64,000 nt of DNA from the NCBI GenBank assembly GCA_013203185.1, contig JABMOS010000118.1, positions 23,006 through 87,005 on the forward strand. The letters run 5' to 3'. This stretch comes from Fidelibacterota bacterium (GTDB lineage Bacteria > Fidelibacterota > UBA8477 > JABMPR01). The notes under the pieces were generated by a model. That model worked only from the letters and a program-made list of their open reading frames with translations. It was not told where the DNA came from and made no database searches. How positions within the stretch are numbered: the stretch's first letter is position 1; every line of letters starts with the position of its first letter. Both the position numbers and the translations under genes were made by a program. This document shows, piece after piece, positions 24,989 through 38,102 of the stretch.

Positions 24989-27349
24989 CTAGGCTTGAGA
25001 TTCAGTGACTTTCTGTAGTTCTCTGGCTCTGGTATAGAATTCTTCCAATTCCATCTCTTTGAGATAGACCAGCCCATGAGCGGCTCGAACACGTGGATGT
25101 GCATTTTCATACCAAAAATCGCGTCCCATTACCCTTTTCATATCCTGATGTTGTTGGACCTGAATGGCCTGCGCCAAACCTGAAAACGGTCCATTAAATT
25201 CATGACTGGGAAATGGGGCATCCACTTGTGATTGAAAACAATACTTGAAAGTTTCCTTCATGATGGCCATTGAGTTTAGAGATACGGGCACAAAAATATT
25301 GGCATCCGTCGGCTGAAATTTGAACCAGACATTGCGGTAACCCCAGACCCTTAACGATGCGGAGGGATGCCTCTCTTTATAGAGACGAATGGCTTCAGCA
25401 ATAGCCTGCATCACTTTGTAGTGGGTATCAGGACCGCTGGCTTCAGGGTCAAGTGCCAGCGTCACCACGGTTGGCCTAATTTTCTCCATGTACTCGAGAA
25501 TGGGCTGGACATCACGATCTATGGTGGGATCTTCAGTGAATATATCACCCTTATAAAAACCCAGACGCAGATGGTGAACATTTTTTATGGGGGTTCCATA
25601 ATGACCCCAAACCAGGTCAGCCTCCCATTCTCTGATACGCCCTTTTAGCAATTGCATGACAGGGTCATCTTTTTGACCGGGATAGCATGTATCCAGGTAT
25701 TCAATGAGCTCACCCATTTTCACGTGAAGCGTATCAAGATTAAAATCTGGATATAGAATCAGGAGATTACGGATAAGTCTCCGGGATGAGCCATTGTTTC
25801 GCAGGGTTTTGCTATGGTGAGCCACACCATCCAGATAGGTGTAAATATCTCGCTGGGCACCTGCCGCATTGTCAGCATCATAATAATTTTCTGCCTTAAG
25901 ACGATTAAACTGATCAGTTTCCATATGCTCCATGGCATTGAGGATTTGGTCTTTCACAAAATCATTGGTCACTGCATTAAAACCACTGGTCATGTACGCG
26001 AAATGATGTTCGTTTCGAGGGGTTCGTACGAGATGAACAATATGGGCGAGATATCCCAACATGATGTCGTCATGATGGGGGGCTGTGTGGAAAAACACAT
26101 CGTCTTGTATTGGTGTCAGCCCTCGAGTGAGTTTTGCATGGAGATTCTTGAAGATCCTTGCCTTGATCTCTGGGAGGGTGGCCTTGCTCCGCTTGAGGGC
26201 CATGGCCGGGACTTGTTTTTCTGCTACCTGGGCCTCAGTAATATCCTTAATAGGTGTTTGTGACCGCATGGAGAGCGTAATCAGGTGCTGATCTACAAGT
26301 TCTTCAGATACTTCATCAGCACTTTCAATTTCATGGACCTGTCTTCTGTCCAAAAATACTGCAGCCCCAGAAGTGATATAAAATCGAGCATTTCCCATGT
26401 TATGCAGGGCGCCAGCTGGATACATATTGCTGGCAGGTTCCTGGATAGATCCGGCTACGATTTTTGCCTTGGCTTCTCCTGCAGCAAAAATCAAACAGGT
26501 TGCATCCGGGTTGTGGGTAATGGTCTGAAGGCCAACAGTAATAACCAGACGCTTCTTAGAGACTTCAATGCCACCTAAATCACCAGCTGCGGCAGCTTGT
26601 GTTTCAAAATTTGTTGGTGTTAGACGGGTTGTCGAAAAATAGTCAGATCCGCGAACATTGAAGGCAATGTGGCCATCTGGTCCAATACCACCCAGAAAGA
26701 ACCCGATACCCCCTTTTTCCCGTATACGTCTTTCATACTCTGTGCAAAACTCATCAACCCGTTCAATGGCTTCCTTTTGTAAACGACCTTTGGTTGAGTT
26801 GGGTTGACTAAATCGCAGACCAAGATCAACCACATCATCAGGAAAGATCTCGCGATAATTCTTGCCCTGGGGCAGAATAATCTGTGTTGCATCAATGAGT
26901 TGCGCACGTTCTGCACTAATCCCAAAGCCATTGATATAATATTTCATCACATAATCAAAAAAGCTGTTGTGCTGGGTGGGAGATATGGGAAAGAACTCAT
27001 CTATCTGAACAAACTGTAGATTCTGCAGGTGAGGTTTTCGTGAATGATCAAGACCCACTTCCTCCAGGAAGGCACTGGTTAACTTGTCCTCCCAATTTTT
27101 CAAATAATATTCGGCATAGCGGATAAAATATTCAGGCGTTTTACCCGTGGGTAGAGAGACTACGCCTTCTGGATTATTCTGGACCCATTCCAAAAAGCGC
27201 AGAGCTGTTAATTGACCAAGATTTGGAAAATTACCTACCTGGATGACTGGAATTTTTTCATCCGGACTATACCTAAAATCAAGCTTCGAACGGTTCAGGA
27301 AATAGCTTTCTACAGGTGTGGGTGGATTAAAAATATTCTTTTTATTCAT
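24989..27349 (-). CDS. Long glucosamine-6-phosphate deaminase/isomerase family protein with C-terminal LmbE/PIG-L-like domain
   Basis: N-terminal NagB/6-phosphogluconolactonase-fold motifs (VVSLPTGKTPEYF; GGIGPDGHIAFN). The C-terminal half has TAPHHDDIMLGY (like the LmbE AHPDD motif) and DPEASGPDTH. ATG at 27349 is preferred to the track start at 27388. Confidence 0.7.
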   Translation of the reverse strand: MNKKNIFNPPTPVESYFLNRSKLDFRYSPDEKIPVIQVGNFPNLGQLTALRFLEWVQNNPEGVVSLPTGKTPEYFIRYAEYYLKNWEDKLTSAFLEEVGLDHSRKPHLQNLQFVQIDEFFPISPTQHNSFFDYVMKYYINGFGISAERAQLIDATQIILPQGKNYREIFPDDVVDLGLRFSQPNSTKGRLQKEAIERVDEFCTEYERRIREKGGIGFFLGGIGPDGHIAFNVRGSDYFSTTRLTPTNFETQAAAAGDLGGIEVSKKRLVITVGLQTITHNPDATCLIFAAGEAKAKIVAGSIQEPASNMYPAGALHNMGNARFYITSGAAVFLDRRQVHEIESADEVSEELVDQHLITLSMRSQTPIKDITEAQVAEKQVPAMALKRSKATLPEIKARIFKNLHAKLTRGLTPIQDDVFFHTAPHHDDIMLGYLAHIVHLVRTPRNEHHFAYMTSGFNAVTNDFVKDQILNAMEHMETDQFNRLKAENYYDADNAAGAQRDIYTYLDGVAHHSKTLRNNGSSRRLIRNLLILYPDFNLDTLHVKMGELIEYLDTCYPGQKDDPVMQLLKGRIREWEADLVWGHYGTPIKNVHHLRLGFYKGDIFTEDPTIDRDVQPILEYMEKIRPTVVTLALDPEASGPDTHYKVMQAIAEAIRLYKERHPSASLRVWGYRNVWFKFQPTDANIFVPVSLNSMAIMKETFKYCFQSQVDAPFPSHEFNGPFSGLAQAIQVQQHQDMKRVMGRDFWYENAHPRVRAAHGLVYLKEMELEEFYTRARELQKVTESQA

Positions 27350-27531
27350 GGCGTCATTATGGTTGAGAAAAAAGCAAATTACAACCATTTATTATGGGGT
27401 TCTGTTTCTATAAAGATAATATTATCAATGATCGCCCCTTATTGTTTGTTAGCTTTATTTACTAACTTAAAATAAATATTTATTGGAGATTAAGACCAAT
27501 GAGAAAATTGTAATCTCCGGGATTCTTGGCT

Positions 27532-31186: not shown

Positions 31187-31819
31187 ATGACTCATTTCAC
31201 TATTAAGGATCTTCCGCAAGAGTATCAGTTTCTAAAAGACTCCTCCATCCTCATCATTGGGAATGGACCCAGTGCCGCCAAGCATGAGATGGGCAGAGAG
31301 ATTGACAAGTTTGATCAGATCATCAGAATTAACAACTATGTCACCGATCACATGGAATCACGGGTTGGCTCGCGGACAGACATCTGGGTAAATGGTGCCA
31401 ATCAGGGCTTAAAAAAACGACTCACGTTACCCGAAAAGATATTGGTGATGATACCTCCTGTCGTGTTGAATCATAAGGGGGTAGCCATTCACCGCCGCAT
31501 TGAAAACCGACTTGGATCGAAAAATTATACGCTGCTGCCACTGGAAATCATGTCTGAGATGGAATCATCATGTGGGCTTGATCGACCAACAACAGGATTC
31601 TTTACCATATATTTCTTCTATTTATTAGGGCTTGATGTCACACTTCACGGTTTCGATTTCTTCGTCGGATCAACTGCTCACTATTTTGATAGTCCCCTCA
31701 AGCGGTGGCTCAAGGAGAAGGGAATTATCAAGAAGGCAGTCAAGCACGATGTGGTCGGTGAAAAAGTATTCATTGAGACCCTCATCCAGAAGGGAGGAGT
31801 AAAAGTTTTACATGCCTAG
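31187..31819 (+). CDS. GT29-like (eukaryote-type) sialyltransferase homologue
   Basis: Four motifs in GT29 order: L-like ILIIGNGPS...GREIDKFDQIIRINN...ESRVGSRTD; S-like PTTGFFTIYFFYLLGLDVTLHGFDFF; III-like HYFD; VS-like KHDVVGE (H-x4-E). Starts 3 nt after licD-like. No signal peptide or TM segment. Confidence 0.6.
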   Translation: MTHFTIKDLPQEYQFLKDSSILIIGNGPSAAKHEMGREIDKFDQIIRINNYVTDHMESRVGSRTDIWVNGANQGLKKRLTLPEKILVMIPPVVLNHKGVAIHRRIENRLGSKNYTLLPLEIMSEMESSCGLDRPTTGFFTIYFFYLLGLDVTLHGFDFFVGSTAHYFDSPLKRWLKEKGIIKKAVKHDVVGEKVFIETLIQKGGVKVLHA

Positions 31820-32701
31820 CTAACTTCGTTTCAAGGTGAGCAGTACCAGACCTGATAGCGTGATTGCTCCCCCGATTATCACATTCAATCCAACCAATTC
31901 ACCAAAGAATATATAGGCCAGAACCGAAGCCAGAACCGGTTCCCCAAAAGGCATAGAACCAACAATTGTTGGACGAAGATATTTGACGGCATAGCTCATA
32001 CTATTATGCCCAATGAGGGTTGGTAAAACAACCAGTCCAAACAGCCATTTTGTATCTGCCTGCTGAAAGCTTATGTCAATTCCCATACTGAAAATTATTA
32101 ACGCTAAGGTAAGGGCAGCGAATAAGTATAGCCAGCGTGTGTACATGATATTGGTAATTTCACTGCGCACACGTTGAGCAATGATAAGTACCACTGACAT
32201 GAAGGCAGAACTGGCCAGGGCATAGAAATTTCCTTTAGTAGCTTCTGAGCCCCATTCAAATCCAGTCCCCTGGACAATAACAGCACCTGCTATGGCCATC
32301 CAAAGGCCAAACAGTGCTCCCACAGGGAACTTGTGCTTCAACGCAAAGCGCTCATAGGCAAGGGTAAAGATGGGTGCCAGAGTGGCAAAGAGGGTGGCAC
32401 TTGCAATTGAGGTCGACTTGACAGCAGAATAGAAAAATGCAAAATGAAGGGCCAGGAAAATCCCGGCAACGATAATCGCAGGAAATTTGTTTTTTGCCAG
32501 TGGTGCCTGCCTCTTGATGGCCCCATGACTCCACAATAGAGTTGATGCTCCAGCCATGCGCCAAAATGCAATAGTTAGTGCAGCGAGCTCTGGAAGGAAC
32601 CGGGCAAGGGGAGCTCCAAAGCTGACCCCCAGAAGCCCAAATACAAGCATGACATAAATCCTGTTATTCATAGCTTTGAACATAATCGTGGTGAATGTCA
32701 T
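31820..32701 (-). CDS. EamA/DMT-superfamily transporter
   Basis: Ten hydrophobic segments in two EamA-like halves. The track start at 32809 is a TTG that would overlap the divergent neuA start; in-frame ATGs at 32701, 32683 and 32671 are more plausible. Confidence 0.75.
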   Translation of the reverse strand: MTFTTIMFKAMNNRIYVMLVFGLLGVSFGAPLARFLPELAALTIAFWRMAGASTLLWSHGAIKRQAPLAKNKFPAIIVAGIFLALHFAFFYSAVKSTSIASATLFATLAPIFTLAYERFALKHKFPVGALFGLWMAIAGAVIVQGTGFEWGSEATKGNFYALASSAFMSVVLIIAQRVRSEITNIMYTRWLYLFAALTLALIIFSMGIDISFQQADTKWLFGLVVLPTLIGHNSMSYAVKYLRPTIVGSMPFGEPVLASVLAYIFFGELVGLNVIIGGAITLSGLVLLTLKRS

Positions 32702-32802
32702 GGACACGTATTGATTAAGCTCCTGCCCTACAAATCTGATTCCACTGGGAGTGATTAAAAAATTGTGGGCTGTGATGGGCGTCTCTTCATATATATTGGG
32801 GG

Positions 32803-33486
32803 ATGTCAATTTTTTGTATTATTCCTGCTCGCGGTGGTTCCAAAGGGGTTCCACATAAAAACATAGCTCCATTTTTAGGACAGCCTTTGATCAGCCACAC
32901 CATCAAGTATGCTCTCGCATCCAAATTTGTTGATGGCGTCTTTGTTTCCACTGACGATGAGGAGATTTCTAAGATATCCACAAGTGATGGTGCACAGGTA
33001 ATTCCGAGACCAGCTGAGATCGCTGGTGATACTGCTACCACAGAGTCTGCTATTTCACATGCAATTGGATGGTGGCAAGAGCAGAACTTAACCCCGGATA
33101 TCATTGTTTTATTGCAGGCAACAAGTCCACTTCGGCCCACAGGCTCACTGGACGAGGCTCTGGATAAGTTTAAGGATGGGGGTTTCGACTCCTTACTTAG
33201 TATCTCGCCCACACATCGGTTTTTCTGGAGTGTAAATGGGAAAGTAGCACGCGCTGAATACGATTTTATGAACCGGCCTAGACGTCAGGATATGAACGAA
33301 GCTGACATCAGATATGTTGAGAATGGATCTGTTTACATTTTTTCATTGGACCATTTCCAGCGCACAGAGAATAGACTTGGTGGAAAGATCGGGTATACCA
33401 TTTTCCCCGAAGAATTCAGCCCGGAGATAGATATTCCAAGTGACTTTACTTTGCTGGAAGAGATTGCTGAAAATTTAATCAGGTAG
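32803..33486 (+). CDS. neuA: CMP-sialic acid (N-acylneuraminate/KDN) cytidylyltransferase
   Basis: IIPARGGSKGVPHKNI, LLQATSPLR, RPRRQD and VENGSVYIF. The last two strings also occur in animal CMAS as I recall it. Confidence 0.85.
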   Translation: MSIFCIIPARGGSKGVPHKNIAPFLGQPLISHTIKYALASKFVDGVFVSTDDEEISKISTSDGAQVIPRPAEIAGDTATTESAISHAIGWWQEQNLTPDIIVLLQATSPLRPTGSLDEALDKFKDGGFDSLLSISPTHRFFWSVNGKVARAEYDFMNRPRRQDMNEADIRYVENGSVYIFSLDHFQRTENRLGGKIGYTIFPEEFSPEIDIPSDFTLLEEIAENLIR

Positions 33487-33503
33487 ATCGCTTTACTTAA
33501 ATA

Positions 33504-34565
33504 TTGGAGGTTGCTTTGCCAACTTTACAACTAGGCTCACAAACCGTTGGTGAGAATGATCCAACCTACATTATCGCTGAGATAGGTATTAATCATCAGG
33601 GTGAAGTAGAGATTGCAAAAAAACTGATCAAAGAAGCTGCTCATGGTGGCGCAAATGCAGTAAAATTTCAAAAGCGCAGCATCAAGCGCATCTTGACCCA
33701 CGAAGGTCTTGAAATGCCCTACGATAATCGCAATTCATTTGGCAAGACCTACGGCGAACATAAAAAAGCCTTAGAGCTGTCTGAGTCCGATTATCAGGAA
33801 CTCATGAATTATGCCAGTGAGCATAATGTCGACTTTATTGCCTCAGGGTGGGATGAAGAGAGTATCGATTTTCTTGATGAATTGGGTGTACCATTTTTCA
33901 AAATGGCTTCAGCCGATCTAACCAACATACCCCTGCTTATTCATACTGCAAAAAAGAACAAGCCAATGATTCTTTCCACAGGGATGGCAAACATGGAAAT
34001 GGTAGAAACTGCTGTTAATGCTATCAAGCCATTTGACGTTCCCCTGTGTATTCTCCAATGCACATCAACATATCCATCAGTTTTTGAAGAGGTTAATCTC
34101 GGTGTTATTAACACTTTCAAGCAACATTTTCCACAAGCTGTTATTGGCTATTCAGGTCATGAATTAGGAATTGCCATCACTGAAGCAGCTGTGGCCCTTG
34201 GAGCAAAGATTGTGGAACGCCATTTCACATTAGATAGGACCATGAAGGGTGGGGACCATGCCGCATCTCTTGAACCAGGTGGTTTTTCAAAGCTGGTCCG
34301 AGATATAAGACATATCGAGGTCGCCATGGGTGGGCCGACTAAACAGATTCAAGCATCGGAAGCACCCATTTTCAAGAAGTTAGCTAAAAGCGTCGTTTCC
34401 CTGGTAGAGCTGTCTGCAGGCACTATTCTGACGAGGGATATGCTTACTACCAAGGGACCTGGAACCGGCATTTCACCTGCAAGAATGGATGAACTATTGG
34501 GAAAAATGGTGATTAATGATATTGCTGCCGATGTGGTACTCAAGGACGAAGACATCAACTGGTAA
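33504..34565 (+). CDS. neuB: Nonulosonic acid synthase of the NANS (9-phosphate) type: Neu5Ac-9-P/KDN-9-P synthase-like, with C-terminal SAF domain
   Basis: YIIAEIGINHQGE, FGKTYGEHKKALELS, PFFKMAS, LQCTSTYP, IGYSGHELGIAITEAAVALGAKIVERHFTLD and GGDHAASLEPG. Collinear with human NANS as recalled (GYSGHE rather than the GxSDH of NeuB). TTG start. Confidence 0.8.
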   Translation: MEVALPTLQLGSQTVGENDPTYIIAEIGINHQGEVEIAKKLIKEAAHGGANAVKFQKRSIKRILTHEGLEMPYDNRNSFGKTYGEHKKALELSESDYQELMNYASEHNVDFIASGWDEESIDFLDELGVPFFKMASADLTNIPLLIHTAKKNKPMILSTGMANMEMVETAVNAIKPFDVPLCILQCTSTYPSVFEEVNLGVINTFKQHFPQAVIGYSGHELGIAITEAAVALGAKIVERHFTLDRTMKGGDHAASLEPGGFSKLVRDIRHIEVAMGGPTKQIQASEAPIFKKLAKSVVSLVELSAGTILTRDMLTTKGPGTGISPARMDELLGKMVINDIAADVVLKDEDINW

Positions 34566-34577
34566 ACAGGAGAGCAA

Positions 34578-35075
34578 ATGATATCTGAAGAACTTCGGGC
34601 TAAAGCTCAAAAGATCAAATTGGTAATAACGGATATTGATGGTGTCTGGACAGATGCAAAAATCTATTACACAGAGCATGGCGAATTAATGAAAGCCTTC
34701 AGCTATTATGATGGCATGGGAACAGCCCTCTTAACCAAAGCCAACATTAGAACAGCCATCATAACCGGTGAAAATTCCAAGCCAGTGGCTCAACGAGCCA
34801 AGAAGCTGAAAATCGAAGATGTCTTCCTGGGGATAGATGATAAGCTGGAAGTTTTTGAGTCCCTTCTTGAGAAGTATCAGCTCTTACCCTCAGAAGTAGC
34901 CTACATTGGTGATGATTTGAATGACTACACCGTCATGCAGGTCGCAGGCCTTACTGCAGTCCCCTCAAGCACGCCAGCCTTTCACATTCTCAAACCCGAC
35001 ATTTTATTGAGCCGTGCAGGGGGTGATGGCGCCTTCCGCGAATTTGCCGATCTCATCATCGCATCGCAGCAATGA
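34578..35075 (+). CDS. HAD-IIIA C0-type phosphatase, KdsC family (KDO-8-P or KDN-9-P/Neu5Ac-9-P phosphatase)
   Basis: KLVITDIDGVWTD (motif I), ITGE, IGDDLND and GGDGAFREF. 165 aa with no cap domain. Starts 12 nt after the synthase; ATGA overlap with waaA. Confidence 0.8.
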   Translation: MISEELRAKAQKIKLVITDIDGVWTDAKIYYTEHGELMKAFSYYDGMGTALLTKANIRTAIITGENSKPVAQRAKKLKIEDVFLGIDDKLEVFESLLEKYQLLPSEVAYIGDDLNDYTVMQVAGLTAVPSSTPAFHILKPDILLSRAGGDGAFREFADLIIASQQ

Positions 35076-36343
35076 AAATACTTTTTTATTCTTTCTACAA
35101 TCTTCTTCTTTTAATAGCTATACCAGTCTTTTGGATCGGAGCTTTTTTTAATAGCAAACTTGGCGGCAGTTTTACTGGCCAGAAGGATATTACTTCAAGA
35201 GTTATACGTTTTAAGGATAAAGTTAATTCTAACCCCAAACCTATCATTTGGACTCATTCTGCCTCAGCAGGAGAGTTTGAGCAAATGCGTCCAGTTTTAT
35301 CACGGCTATCTAAAATGGATGTGTACATCTTCCAGACTTTCACTTCAGCTACAATCTATTACAAAGCCTCACAGAATAAGATTTTCCATGGTGTCTGCTT
35401 TTTACCCTGGGATCTATATTCTAGAGTGAATCGTTTCGTTACACTTCTCAAGCCCGACTTATTCATTAATACCAGACATGATATCTGGCCGAATCTCCAA
35501 CTTTCAGTCCAGCGCAATCAGATCAGAAATATTTTAATCAATGCAAACCTATATCAGGATTCGAAACGACTCCTCCCTCTCTTTCGTGGGATCAACTCGC
35601 TTGTATTTAATCAAATCAATCACATTTATACTGGATCATCTACTCTTGAATCCCTGCTCAAGCAAATCTATGCTGGTCCGATTGATGTGGTAGGTGACTC
35701 ACGGTTCGACCAAGTTCAGGAAAGAGCTCTCAGCAACACAGAAATGTTGATAACTGAGGATTTGCTTGCTGACCGACGGGTCGTTGTATATGGTTCCGTA
35801 GGTGATACAGATTTAAAAATTATCACAGCGGCTATTGCTCAGGCTAATACCAATAGGGCTTTCATGCATATTATCGTACCCCATGAAACTGCTGAACGGG
35901 ATCTCATTCCCTGGGAGGCTGAACTCTTTCGCCAAAAGGTAAAATCCATACGAAAATCTGAGATTGATCAGTTCAAAGATGAAACCGTCATGATTTGGGA
36001 TAGCGTGGGACAATTGGCCGACTTGTATAAATATGCTAATCTGGCATTTATTGGAGCAGGATTTGGTGCTGGAGTACACTCTGTTACAGAAGCAGCCATA
36101 TTCAATGTCCCCTGTTCACATGGCCCCAAATATGACATCCTCGCTGAAGCAATAGATTTGGTTAATGAAGGTCTCTCAACAGTGACAAATGAAGTTCCGG
36201 ACCTCATCAGCTTTTTAACCATGCCCGACACTAGCATCACCGAGCTCTCATTGAAAATTGAATCCTTTGTCAAGCATCGACTTGGAGCCACTGATAAAAT
36301 ATTTGAAAACGAACCCCTTCTGAGATCTTTTATTCCACGATAA
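35072..36343 (+). CDS. waaA: 3-deoxy-D-manno-octulosonic acid transferase family (GT30)
   Basis: N-terminal membrane-associated helix, PIIWTHSASAGEFEQMRPVLSRL (cf. WaaA SVSVGE), LPWDL, TRHDIWPNL and INANL, collinear with E. coli WaaA as recalled. Confidence 0.8.
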   Translation: MKILFYSFYNLLLLIAIPVFWIGAFFNSKLGGSFTGQKDITSRVIRFKDKVNSNPKPIIWTHSASAGEFEQMRPVLSRLSKMDVYIFQTFTSATIYYKASQNKIFHGVCFLPWDLYSRVNRFVTLLKPDLFINTRHDIWPNLQLSVQRNQIRNILINANLYQDSKRLLPLFRGINSLVFNQINHIYTGSSTLESLLKQIYAGPIDVVGDSRFDQVQERALSNTEMLITEDLLADRRVVVYGSVGDTDLKIITAAIAQANTNRAFMHIIVPHETAERDLIPWEAELFRQKVKSIRKSEIDQFKDETVMIWDSVGQLADLYKYANLAFIGAGFGAGVHSVTEAAIFNVPCSHGPKYDILAEAIDLVNEGLSTVTNEVPDLISFLTMPDTSITELSLKIESFVKHRLGATDKIFENEPLLRSFIPR

Positions 36344-37994
36344 AATCAAATAGTAACTCCTGGCCGAAATCTGGTGGGAAAGACAGCAGCGTATCTCCAG
36401 ACATCGATTCAAAGAGCACTAATCCATCCATCCCTACCTGGCTGGGTGCCGCGTTCCTGTTCCACCAATGTCGTGATATCCCATCTTCCATCTCATCACT
36501 GAATTTGAACTGATACATGCCCTTGGCTAAATCAACAGGTATTCTATAGTTTGTGCTGTCCTTAAAATCATCCATATAGTACCAGATCAACCCTGACATA
36601 TCACTAATATAGTATTTATTCTCTGCCGAACGCCCGAGGTTATTTGTTTGTATGGATAGAACAAACTTATGAGGAAAACTAACGGGCTTTTGAAAGTGTG
36701 AAGTTAAAGTATTGTTTTCAGGGTATTCATCAAGCATTGGTTTGGGAAGTACAAGATGCACCTGAAACCTTCCAGATTCCCTCATCTGTTTCCTACTCAA
36801 TGCTGGAAGAACGACTTCTTCGGATTCAAGGAACTCTAGATTGCCTTTCCAGTTAAATTTCTTCTTCCTATGTCCTGCAATTCCATAAGTAATATTCAAA
36901 TCCCTTATGGGATATGCTCCCTCATTTTTGATAATTATGATTGGATTACCACCACTGGGATTCATTCTTGAATATTGGTCTTTAGCGTTGGGTACAAGTA
37001 TCTGAACAACAGCAGCATTATAATTGAAATGTGGTGGGCCAAAGCTGAACAATTGGTGGCTCATCCTCAAGGTTCCATCCTTTTCCCCATTGTCCATAAA
37101 TGGTTCAATAGTATAGTCCAGAGTAATGGTGTCTCCAGGGGATACTTTTGGTGTCAGTTCAAACATGTATTCATCTACTTTTGTTCCTGGGCACCAACCA
37201 GCCCTATCAAATGCCCAGGTTCCACCTTGTGGATATATTGGATTATTCCCACAATCTTTCCATACATTCCATCTGTAGGTCTCCCAACTGTTTAAACGGT
37301 AGGTATGAGTCTTGCTATCCCATTCACAGCAATTGTATGGCCCTGCATGACCATGTCCTGATATAGTCGCTTTGAGACTGAAAGCTGCGGCCGCCTCAGA
37401 AAGTACAATCTGCCTTTCTTTTAATAAGCTATCTGTAGAAAGATATTCGTACTTATACTCCCCATAAGGATACACGTTTTCTACTGACAACACCTGTCTT
37501 GCAGGTGTTCCTCGAATAAACAGAAACTGCAGGTTTAGCAATTCTTGGTTATTGCCTGCAATTATATTACGAGCGCCCTTTAGGAGCGGCGCATACTCAG
37601 TTATATCATACACCCACTTCCAACCGCTCTCACCTCCAAGTTTTAATCGTTTCCCATATGGCGTGACAAAACTTCCAAGTGTGAATAGCTCTGTACTATC
37701 CCCCTGTGGAACTTCGATAAATATATTCCAAATGTAATCCCACTCACCACATGGGTATGCATCACCAGCAGTGGCAGTATCACATTTTAAGGTCTGAACC
37801 ATAAATATTTGCGACCACCTGCTATCATCATCAGGAAAGTTGACAACTGTTTTATACTGTGCATTCCACCCCAATGGGCTTGGTTCATCAAAAGTAATGG
37901 GGGTGAATTGTAAGGTGTCACCAGACCAGGATTGACTTAAGCAAACTGACAATGGTGACCCAGTAACTAGTATAAATAGCAATACTCGATACAT
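36330..37994 (-). CDS. Secreted PNGase F-like peptide-N-glycosidase (glycoamidase) with ~220-aa C-terminal extension
   Basis: Signal peptide MYRVLLFILVTGSPLSVCLSQ. Collinear with Elizabethkingia PNGase F as recalled: CGEWDY (CDEWDR), LGSFVTPYG (IGRFITPY), TISGHGHAG (TISGWGHA), CCEWD (CAEW) and AFDRAGWCPG (APDRAGWCPG). Confidence 0.7.
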   Translation of the reverse strand: MYRVLLFILVTGSPLSVCLSQSWSGDTLQFTPITFDEPSPLGWNAQYKTVVNFPDDDSRWSQIFMVQTLKCDTATAGDAYPCGEWDYIWNIFIEVPQGDSTELFTLGSFVTPYGKRLKLGGESGWKWVYDITEYAPLLKGARNIIAGNNQELLNLQFLFIRGTPARQVLSVENVYPYGEYKYEYLSTDSLLKERQIVLSEAAAAFSLKATISGHGHAGPYNCCEWDSKTHTYRLNSWETYRWNVWKDCGNNPIYPQGGTWAFDRAGWCPGTKVDEYMFELTPKVSPGDTITLDYTIEPFMDNGEKDGTLRMSHQLFSFGPPHFNYNAAVVQILVPNAKDQYSRMNPSGGNPIIIIKNEGAYPIRDLNITYGIAGHRKKKFNWKGNLEFLESEEVVLPALSRKQMRESGRFQVHLVLPKPMLDEYPENNTLTSHFQKPVSFPHKFVLSIQTNNLGRSAENKYYISDMSGLIWYYMDDFKDSTNYRIPVDLAKGMYQFKFSDEMEDGISRHWWNRNAAPSQVGMDGLVLFESMSGDTLLSFPPDFGQELLFDFIVE

Positions 37995-38063: not shown

Positions 38064-38102
38064 GCCCCCTATTACCAGTGATATATCTGGCAATAGAGGG
38101 GC
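38064..38102 (-). terminator. Probable rho-independent terminator after tpx
   Basis: Minus strand: GCCCCUCUAUUGCCAG-auauauca-CUGGUAAUAGGGGGC. About 15 bp with one bulge and one G-U pair, followed by AUAUUUAUAUUU. It lies 32 nt after the tpx stop. Confidence 0.6.

Follow-up and report, generated by a model that had tools for sequence, protein, structure and literature searches.

The stretch analysed here, referred to as the window, is a 64,000-nucleotide (nt) segment of contig JABMOS010000118.1 from a Fidelibacterota (Marinimicrobia) metagenome-assembled genome (MAG). An open reading frame (ORF) at 36330..37994 on its reverse strand, with an ATG start, encodes a 554-residue protein (P0001) that resembles the glycoamidase peptide-N-glycosidase F (PNGase F). 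The protein belongs to a known enzyme family and has an uncharacterised, very widespread variant architecture, in which a PNGase F-type core is followed by two predicted immunoglobulin (Ig)-like domains. The features of the locus were as follows.

36330..37994, reverse strand: PNGase F-like gene (P0001), complete with stop codon (ORF, Pfam, phmmer and homologue search)
37935..37994, reverse strand: predicted Sec signal peptide, residues 1–20 (direct sequence reading and alignment of homologue N-termini)
37506..37919, reverse strand: first jelly-roll domain, residues ~26–163 (phmmer, AlphaFold2 (AF2), Foldseek and alignment)
37032..37505, reverse strand: second jelly-roll domain (N-glycanase_C), residues ~164–321 (Pfam, phmmer and alignment)
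36687..37031, reverse strand: first extra beta-sandwich, Ig-like (CARDB/Calx-beta-like), residues 322–436 (AF2 and Foldseek)
36333..36686, reverse strand: second extra beta-sandwich, residues 437–554, not a type IX secretion system (T9SS) sorting domain (AF2)
35072..36343, forward strand: waaA-like gene of the 3-deoxy-D-manno-octulosonic acid (Kdo) transferase family (glycosyltransferase family GT30), neighbour only (PF04413, 101.5 bits)
36330..36343, both strands: 14 nt shared by the converging waaA-like and PNGase F-like ORFs at their 3' ends
38065..38100, reverse strand: terminator-like hairpin after tpx, a 14-bp stem followed by a T-rich tail, separating tpx from the PNGase F-like gene

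Residues ~26–321 were found to be homologous to PNGase F from Elizabethkingia. A phmmer search against PDB sequences returned 1pnf at E=1.3e-20, together with 3pms, 1pgs and, at E=1.6e-6, the zebrafish acid PNGase 9lwg. The alignment to 1pnf paired query residues 65–305 with chain residues 39–288 and covered both jelly-roll domains, so the similarity is not confined to the jelly-roll fold, a limit that an earlier note on this DNA had named as a way in which its PNGase F assignment could fail. The five PNGase F blocks recognised in that note all had counterparts in the HMMER alignment, namely (query/PNGase F) CGEWDY/CDEWDR, LGSFVTPYG/IGRFITPYW, TISGHGHAG/TISGWGHAK, CCEWD/CAEWC and FDRAGWCPG/PDRAGWCPG. 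In Pfam, where the PNGase F superfamily is clan CL0612 with the families N-glycanase_N (PF09112) and N-glycanase_C (PF09113), the latter matched residues 192–315 with 51.6 bits against a cut-off of 25. A full-length AF2 model built on 36 homologues, with a mean predicted local distance difference test score (pLDDT) of 79, predicted a double jelly-roll fold. Its best Foldseek matches were 1pnf (template modelling score (TM) 0.73), 1png, 3pms and 1pgs, with target-normalised TM of 0.70–0.73 and E ~1e-15, and the next were PNGases too (9lwg, PNGF-II 4r4x, 3ks7, 7zgn and 4qhb). Together these results support a genuine member of the PNGase F superfamily, an assignment that holds at superfamily level. 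The family assignment is not new, NCBI naming some members 'peptide-N-glycosidase F-related'.

The first jelly-roll carries C71–C82 (equivalent to C51–C56 of PNGase F), W85, D86, Y87, Y113, N149 and E151, and the second carries H214, H216, C222-C223, E224, W225, C248, R264, W267 and C268. For comparison of the active sites, the PNGase F segment from the phmmer alignment was added to an alignment of the family comprising 36 homologues at 53–80 % identity. The correspondences, with the PNGase F residue given first, were as follows.

D60, here D86 (codon 37737–37739, reverse strand): catalytic, retained, invariant in 36/36 homologues
E206, here E224 (codon 37323–37325, reverse strand): catalytic, retained, invariant in 36/36 homologues
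R248, here R264 (codon 37203–37205, reverse strand): active-site Arg, retained, invariant in 36/36 homologues
W59, here W85: retained, invariant in the 36 homologues
W207, here W225: retained, invariant in the 36 homologues
W251, here W267: retained, invariant in the 36 homologues
Y85, here Y113: retained, invariant in the 36 homologues
R61, here Y87: replaced, invariant in the 36 homologues
E118, here N149: replaced, invariant in the 36 homologues
W120, here E151: replaced, invariant in the 36 homologues
W191, here H214: replaced, invariant in the 36 homologues

The catalytic Asp, Glu and Arg, which the earlier note had left to be checked in a proper alignment, are thus present as D86, E224 and R264. 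D60 and E206 are essential in PNGase F, and their equivalents are essential in zebrafish Ngly2 (PMC12753239; bioRxiv 10.1101/2025.07.17.665090). As read from the alignment, the catalytic machinery is intact, and the cysteines equivalent to the PNGase F disulfides C51–C56 and C231–C252 are also invariant in the family. The glycan-contact residues presented a different pattern. In PNGase F, chitobiose is held by W59, R61 and W191, and core alpha1,3-fucose is blocked by E118 (PMC12753239; bioRxiv 10.1101/2025.07.17.665090). The PNGase F loops with R125 and S155/I156 have no aligned counterpart in the family. Because four chitobiose-contact residues are replaced and three loop residues lack a counterpart, the glycan-core specificity probably differs from that of PNGase F. 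With four contact residues replaced, the protein does not have the contact set of PNGase F sensu stricto (type I, chitobiose-core specific, core alpha1,3-fucose excluded).

The extra C-terminal region reported in the earlier note is present, with a length of ~230 residues, but its fold, there called unknown, was predicted by AF2 and Foldseek as two Ig-like beta-sandwiches. Folded alone on a 19-sequence alignment, residues 322–554 gave two predicted beta-sandwiches with a pLDDT of 84. Foldseek of both together returned generic tandem Ig-like matches only; the first sandwich searched as a single domain matched 2l0d, a Methanosarcina cell-surface domain (TMt 0.71), CARDB 3idu (0.51) and Calx-beta 3fso (0.53). 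No significant Pfam or NCBIfam family was found in the C-terminal region, whether searched whole or in two halves. A Por_Secre_tail assignment to residues 439–554 was rejected at 13.4 bits (E 0.099, cut-off 27), the true sorting domain of the paralogues coming after the module. A loop of the second sandwich, D500-x3-D504-G505-x3-H509-W510-W511 (codons 36462–36497), is invariant in the family.

An exhaustive search with residues 322–554 over 1.84 billion representatives recovered the module in 982 clusters at 50 % identity, 634 of them at E<=1e-10. In the proteins listed, the module occupied residues ~320–550 of 550–690, ~430–650 of ~740 or ~820–1050 of ~1140. Pfam scans of nine module-bearing proteins located PF09113 directly before the module in eight; the ninth (P0191), a partial match only (query residues 29–180), lacked a PNGase F domain. 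An N-terminal Laminin_G_3 domain, a C-terminal Por_Secre_tail or both were also present in several of the nine. The module is a fixed extension of this PNGase F branch in the sampled proteins and is not itself a secretion tag. Its Ig-like domains would probably help in substrate binding or in shaping the active site.

The N-terminus, MYRVLLFILVTGSPLSVCLS/QS, was found to be Sec-like, with R3 in the n-region, the hydrophobic core VLLFILV and a possible cleavage site at CLS/QS, the LSVC motif being a poor lipobox. In the alignment of homologue N-termini, all had a variable hydrophobic leader followed by a conserved GDTL start. A T9SS sorting domain was absent from the protein, being below cut-off in Pfam and without a match in NCBIfam. 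Across the genome there were 95 T9SS sorting-domain matches, ~82 of them above cut-off and none in the PNGase F-like gene. The earlier note had described a secreted enzyme; a leader peptide was supported, but secretion is uncertain given that the ~82 carriers of a sorting domain do not include this protein. The conserved Sec-type leader and the lack of a T9SS tag in a genome rich in T9SS cargo suggest that the protein probably resides in the periplasm or outer membrane, where it would act on imported or surface-bound glycopeptides. As a separate observation, ~82 T9SS-tagged ORFs in a 3.07-Mb, 82 %-complete MAG represent a very large T9SS secretome for a Marinimicrobia genome.

A word-indexed search returned at least 915 clusters at 90 % identity. 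The best 120 clusters were ~535–600 aa long with 54–80 % identity over the full length, except for one 445-aa fragment and one 970-aa fusion, and their source names included 'Candidatus Marinimicrobia' and 'peptide-N-glycosidase F-related protein [Bacteroidales/Bacteroidota]'. In a collection of species-representative genomes, relatives were found in 160 stretches. The best 80 of these were mainly from Marinimicrobia ('Neomarinimicrobiota') and Bacteroidota MAGs, with approximately one-quarter labelled 'uncultured bacterium' and a few carrying Lentisphaeria or Chlorobiota labels; the cultured carriers among these 80 were two Bacteroidota, Rapidithrix thailandica and Splendidivirga corallicola. 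The narrow known distribution ascribed to the enzyme in the earlier note is contradicted by these cluster and genome counts and by the 982 module clusters, which show the family to be very widespread in metagenomes. A literature search found no paper on this subfamily.

In a FastTree phylogeny the sequences sorted largely by phylum, with the window protein inside a Marinimicrobia-wide clade. The GC content was uniform across the locus, and thus gave no indication that the PNGase F-like gene had been transferred recently; recent horizontal acquisition beside waaA was rejected on this uniformity and on the position inside the Marinimicrobia-wide clade. The strong full-length conservation and the sorting of the tree by phylum indicate what would be an old, selected function. 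In the window's genus, the gene was present in ~13 of 23 genomes and missing from ~10, and its absence from some congeners is better read as loss. One orthologue (G011:C23:20115-21671, L010/L019) had three in-frame stops (one TAG, two TAA) and is probably a pseudogene, in keeping with a gene that the genus can dispense with. The gene is thus both old in the lineage and dispensable. Some database labels disagreed with this phylogeny. In the set L037, L038 and L040, two 'uncultured Lentisphaeria' records matched the window's Marinimicrobia genus in synteny and in tree position, and one 'Winogradskyella sp.' record grouped with a Marinimicrobia sequence (UBA2986) and had the gene order of that clade. 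The 'Lentisphaeria' and 'Winogradskyella' records are probably mislabelled or mis-binned.

On the sequence and predicted structure, it is fairly probable that the protein is exported and works as a PNGase on N-glycopeptides or N-glycoproteins of exogenous origin, with a core specificity unlike that of PNGase F. The enzyme would probably cleave N-linked glycans by hydrolysing the amide that joins their reducing-end sugar to Asn, a reaction that would release the glycan and convert Asn to Asp. Its substrates would be glycoproteins or glycopeptides of outside origin, such as those of algae, animals or archaea, and the putative binding site would have an Asn (N149) in place of Glu118, the residue reported to exclude core alpha1,3-fucose.

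Several observations weigh against this interpretation. The earlier note had proposed searches with both PNGase F domain models, and only the C-terminal one matched; N-glycanase_N (PF09112) found no match at E<=1 in the whole protein or at E<=10 in residues 21–170, although the 1pnf phmmer alignment still spans chain residues 39–137 of that domain. Of the PNGase F positions that contact glycan, seven are altered or missing here (R61, E118, W120, W191, R125, S155 and I156), and the position of C208 is occupied by Asp, so that one of the three disulfides, C204–C208, would be lost, while C222 and C223 are adjacent; canonical chitobiose-core recognition is consequently not assured. The AF2 pLDDT fell below 50 in exactly the conserved active-site loops and the conserved C-terminal loop, which leaves the active-site geometry unestablished. 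The proposed localization would follow solely from the absent sorting domain. The glycoside hydrolase (GH) family GH92 alpha-mannosidase was absent from this 82 %-complete genome and did not track the gene within the genus, leaving no evident downstream route for high-mannose N-glycans. Finally, tight coupling of the gene to a di-iron membrane hydroxylase resembling alkylglycerol monooxygenase (AGMO) in another Marinimicrobia clade is a poor fit with a glycoprotein role.

That hydroxylase, of the FA_hydroxylase family (PF04116, 106 bits), is a 410–450-aa membrane protein encoded downstream on the same strand in 21 of the 80 loci. The gap was 2–101 nt in 16 of the 21 and ~0.9–2.9 kb in the other five, which suggests that the two genes form an operon in the sister clade. 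Examples include L078:7647-8897, L040, L041, L047 and L049 (range L040–L092), with His-box motifs and an AGMO-like length. The hydroxylase was rejected as an obligate partner for the present lineage, there being no homologue in this genome or genus. With regard to glycan breakdown, one GH20 was present in the genome. Since GH92 is absent and does not co-vary with the gene, the benefit may be access to peptide rather than glycan, or the substrate may be non-canonical.

The latter option, a PNGase F-fold amidase for a different core sugar or another glycosyl- or lipid-amide, is considered unlikely but is the best of the alternatives. It would account for the exchange of the chitobiose-binding set for the equally invariant Y87, N149, E151 and H214, for the obligate 230-aa module with its invariant acidic/His/Trp loop, for the hydroxylase within ~100 nt in 16 loci and for the missing GH92; candidate substrates are archaeal or algal N-glycans without a chitobiose core, and the C-terminal D-x3-DG-x3-HWW loop would join the active site. 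However, proven PNGases vary at the same positions, with His at W59/R61 in Ngly2 and Thr at E118 in Bifidobacterium PNGase A (PMC12753239; bioRxiv 10.1101/2025.07.17.665090), all characterized superfamily members act on N-glycans (PMC10154615), and the absence of the hydroxylase from this genome and genus means that it is not an obligate partner. An extended form of this alternative, in which the ~555-aa family of the Fibrobacterota–Chlorobiota–Bacteroidota (FCB) group and the ~980 module clusters would constitute a distinct class of PNGase F-fold amidases for non-canonical Asn- or amide-linked glycoconjugates, is more doubtful still. Recognition would then be performed by the re-tooled sugar site (Y87, N149, E151 and H214) and the C-terminal D-x3-DG-x3-HWW loop, and the substrates could be algal or archaeal N-glycans lacking the standard chitobiose core or, as the hydroxylase coupling hints, lipid-associated compounds.

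The neighbourhood of the gene bears on a further alternative, raised in the earlier note, in which the enzyme is a functional partner of the adjacent nonulosonate/Kdo genes and scavenges or remodels sialylated eukaryotic glycoproteins together with their operon. The waaA-like ORF 35072..36343 encodes 423 aa on the forward strand and is the final gene of that operon. The coordinates and the 14-nt convergent overlap given in the note were exact with respect to both ORF ends and stop codons, TAA at 36330–36332 for the PNGase F-like gene (reverse strand) and TAA at 36341–36343 for waaA (forward strand), and a scan of the overlap 36330..36343 for terminator-like sites found none. A terminator-like hairpin lies upstream after tpx, a GGGAG motif stands 5' of the ATG and the gene downstream is convergent; judged from these signals, the PNGase F-like gene appears to be a monocistronic transcription unit of its own.

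The order comprising a convergent 2-keto-3-deoxynononic acid (Kdn)-type neuB, HAD phosphatase and waaA on one side, and the PNGase F-like gene and tpx on the other, was found in seven of eight congeneric loci. In the eighth (G018; L017, G018:C187, between 10819 and 12589), tpx was not found and ~1.8 kb separated the PNGase F-like gene from waaA. The 14-nt overlap occurred in five of the eight, with no overlap in G003 and G007. In two congeners without the gene (G004 and G006) the whole operon is kept and waaA converges directly on tpx, and the cluster was at least partly recovered in five further genomes without the gene (G019, G001, G002 and G020 of the same genus and G023 of another). In sister Marinimicrobia clades, the gene adjoins a 616-aa DEAD-box helicase, which is nearby in the window too, and no waaA, neuB or CMP-synthetase gene was found within 6 kb. 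In another large Marinimicrobia clade it lies between a divergent tatD and the downstream FA_hydroxylase-family (AGMO-like) gene. Two Bacteroidota contigs have unrelated housekeeping genes around it, and across the clustered loci no glycoside hydrolase or transporter family was found repeatedly in its vicinity.

Co-occurrence and co-orientation with the Kdn/Kdo operon were therefore not observed across lineages, the genes being convergent and each occurring without the other. The partnership draws on the physical adjacency to waaA, the overlap and the gene order shared by seven loci, but it is very improbable: the gene appears to be transcribed on its own, the cluster is intact in congeners that lack the gene, and outside the genus the gene was never beside waaA, neuB or a CMP-synthetase gene in the loci checked. 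In addition, the cluster has a biosynthetic role in the cytoplasm or inner membrane and contains neither a sialidase nor a lyase, whereas the PNGase-like protein is predicted to be exported. A functional tie to the sialic acid/Kdo genes was not supported. The adjacency is best explained as lineage-specific gene order in a compact genome rather than shared function, and the operon linkage and 14-nt overlap are ordinary consequences of that compactness.

Other features of the surrounding region were also recorded. A convergent pair at 31187–31819 (forward strand) and 31820–32809 (reverse strand), encoding a GT29-like protein and an EamA-type transporter, abuts with zero spacing, suggesting that tight convergent packing is usual at the locus. 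The 210-aa product of 31187–31819 matches eukaryote-type sialyltransferases (GT29, PF00777, 57.7 bits). The interval 32803–35075 encodes a CMP-sugar synthetase, a NeuB-family synthase and a KdsC-like HAD phosphatase. No NeuC-type epimerase was observed in the vicinity, and the product of this pathway may be Kdn or another nonulosonate rather than N-acetylneuraminic acid (Neu5Ac). At 24989–27388 on the reverse strand lies an unusually long 799-aa ORF, whose N-terminal part resembles glucosamine-6-phosphate deaminase. The ORF is oriented divergently to the glycan locus and, in congeners, is kept at the locus edge.

Two alternatives remain. A non-catalytic, lectin-like glycan-binding protein that keeps the PNGase F fold would be in line with the altered glycan-contact residues and with the relationship of jelly-roll domains to carbohydrate-binding modules (PMC8812541), but it is scarcely likely, as the catalytic Asp, Glu and Arg and the surrounding Trp are strictly invariant across phyla, the pattern expected for an enzyme. 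Quality control or remodelling of the cell's own periplasmic or surface N-glycoproteins, the endogenous substrate that the earlier note offered as its second option, would suit a Sec-exported protein without a T9SS tag that may remain in the cell envelope and the housekeeping-like gene context in many lineages, but is the least credible reading, weakened by the absence of an STT3/PglB-type oligosaccharyltransferase from this genome and 40 relatives (41 genomes, archaeal controls positive) and by the dispensability of the gene, missing from ~10 of the 23 congeners.

If active as an exported PNGase on exogenous glycoproteins, the protein would give the very abundant marine PNGase F branch of Marinimicrobia and Bacteroidota its first described member, and would supply a concrete enzyme by which Marinimicrobia could draw nitrogen and carbon from glycoproteins. 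As a reagent for glycomics, a PNGase whose core specificity is different would be useful as well. A review of bacterial carbohydrate-active enzymes for N-glycans points out that those acting on the N-glycans of algae, protists and invertebrates have yet to be discovered (PMC10154615). The distinct amidase class, if real, would represent a widespread and so far unrecognized step in marine organic-matter turnover.

Among known systems, PNGase F from Elizabethkingia meningoseptica (1pnf/1png/1pgs/3pms; EC 3.5.1.52) shares with the window protein the double jelly-roll (TM 0.73, ~25 % identity), the five collinear blocks, the residues D60/E206, R248, W59, W207, W251 and Y85, and the cysteines for two of its three disulfides; a Sec-type leader and the lack of a T9SS domain are common to both. 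It differs in having 314 aa in its mature form versus 554 aa here, where two C-terminal Ig-like domains are added, R61 is replaced by Y, E118 by N, W120 by E and W191 by H, the R125 and S155/I156 loops are absent and N-glycanase_N is undetected. The C204–C208 disulfide of PNGase F contrasts with the vicinal C222–C223 here.

PNGase F-II (4r4x/4r4z), the Bacteroides BF0811-type enzyme (3ks7, 4qhb) and B035DRAFT_03341 (7zgn), a PNGase for plant and insect N-glycans, belong to the same superfamily, with Foldseek E values of 1e-9 to 1e-10, but are only 15–18 % identical to the window protein. Their extra domain is N-terminal rather than C-terminal as in the window protein. The characterized gut Bacteroides PNGases are part of glycan-utilization systems, whereas the window family is found among housekeeping genes. 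These enzymes show that accessory domains and a changed core-fucose specificity are compatible with the core (PMC10154615). None of the characterized PNGase F-type enzymes, namely PNGase F, PNGase F-II, BF0811 and B035DRAFT_03341 (PMC10154615), has C-terminal tandem Ig-like domains or the same binding-site substitutions.

The zebrafish acid PNGase Ngly2 (9lwg) resembles the window protein in its PNGase F-type core (phmmer E=1.6e-6), in which Asp and Glu were essential by mutagenesis, and in having both substitutions at chitobiose-binding positions and accessory domains (PMC12753239). It differs in being a lysosomal homodimer of eukaryotic origin, in which thioredoxin-like and protease-associated (PA) domains precede the core.

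An architectural likeness was also seen in paralogous FCB-group proteins of ~640–1290 aa, which combine Laminin_G_3, the PNGase F core, the same module and Por_Secre_tail. Large examples (1041–1288 aa) occur in the window's own genus (G018:C56:2890-4200 and G022:C44:2888-4087), and others include P0137 and P0149. In these paralogues the core is likewise followed directly by the 230-aa module, with 28–39 % identity in the module. Unlike the window protein, which has neither, they possess a sorting domain for the T9SS and, in many cases, a ConA-like lectin domain at the N-terminus, and they are presumably its secreted or cell-surface counterparts.

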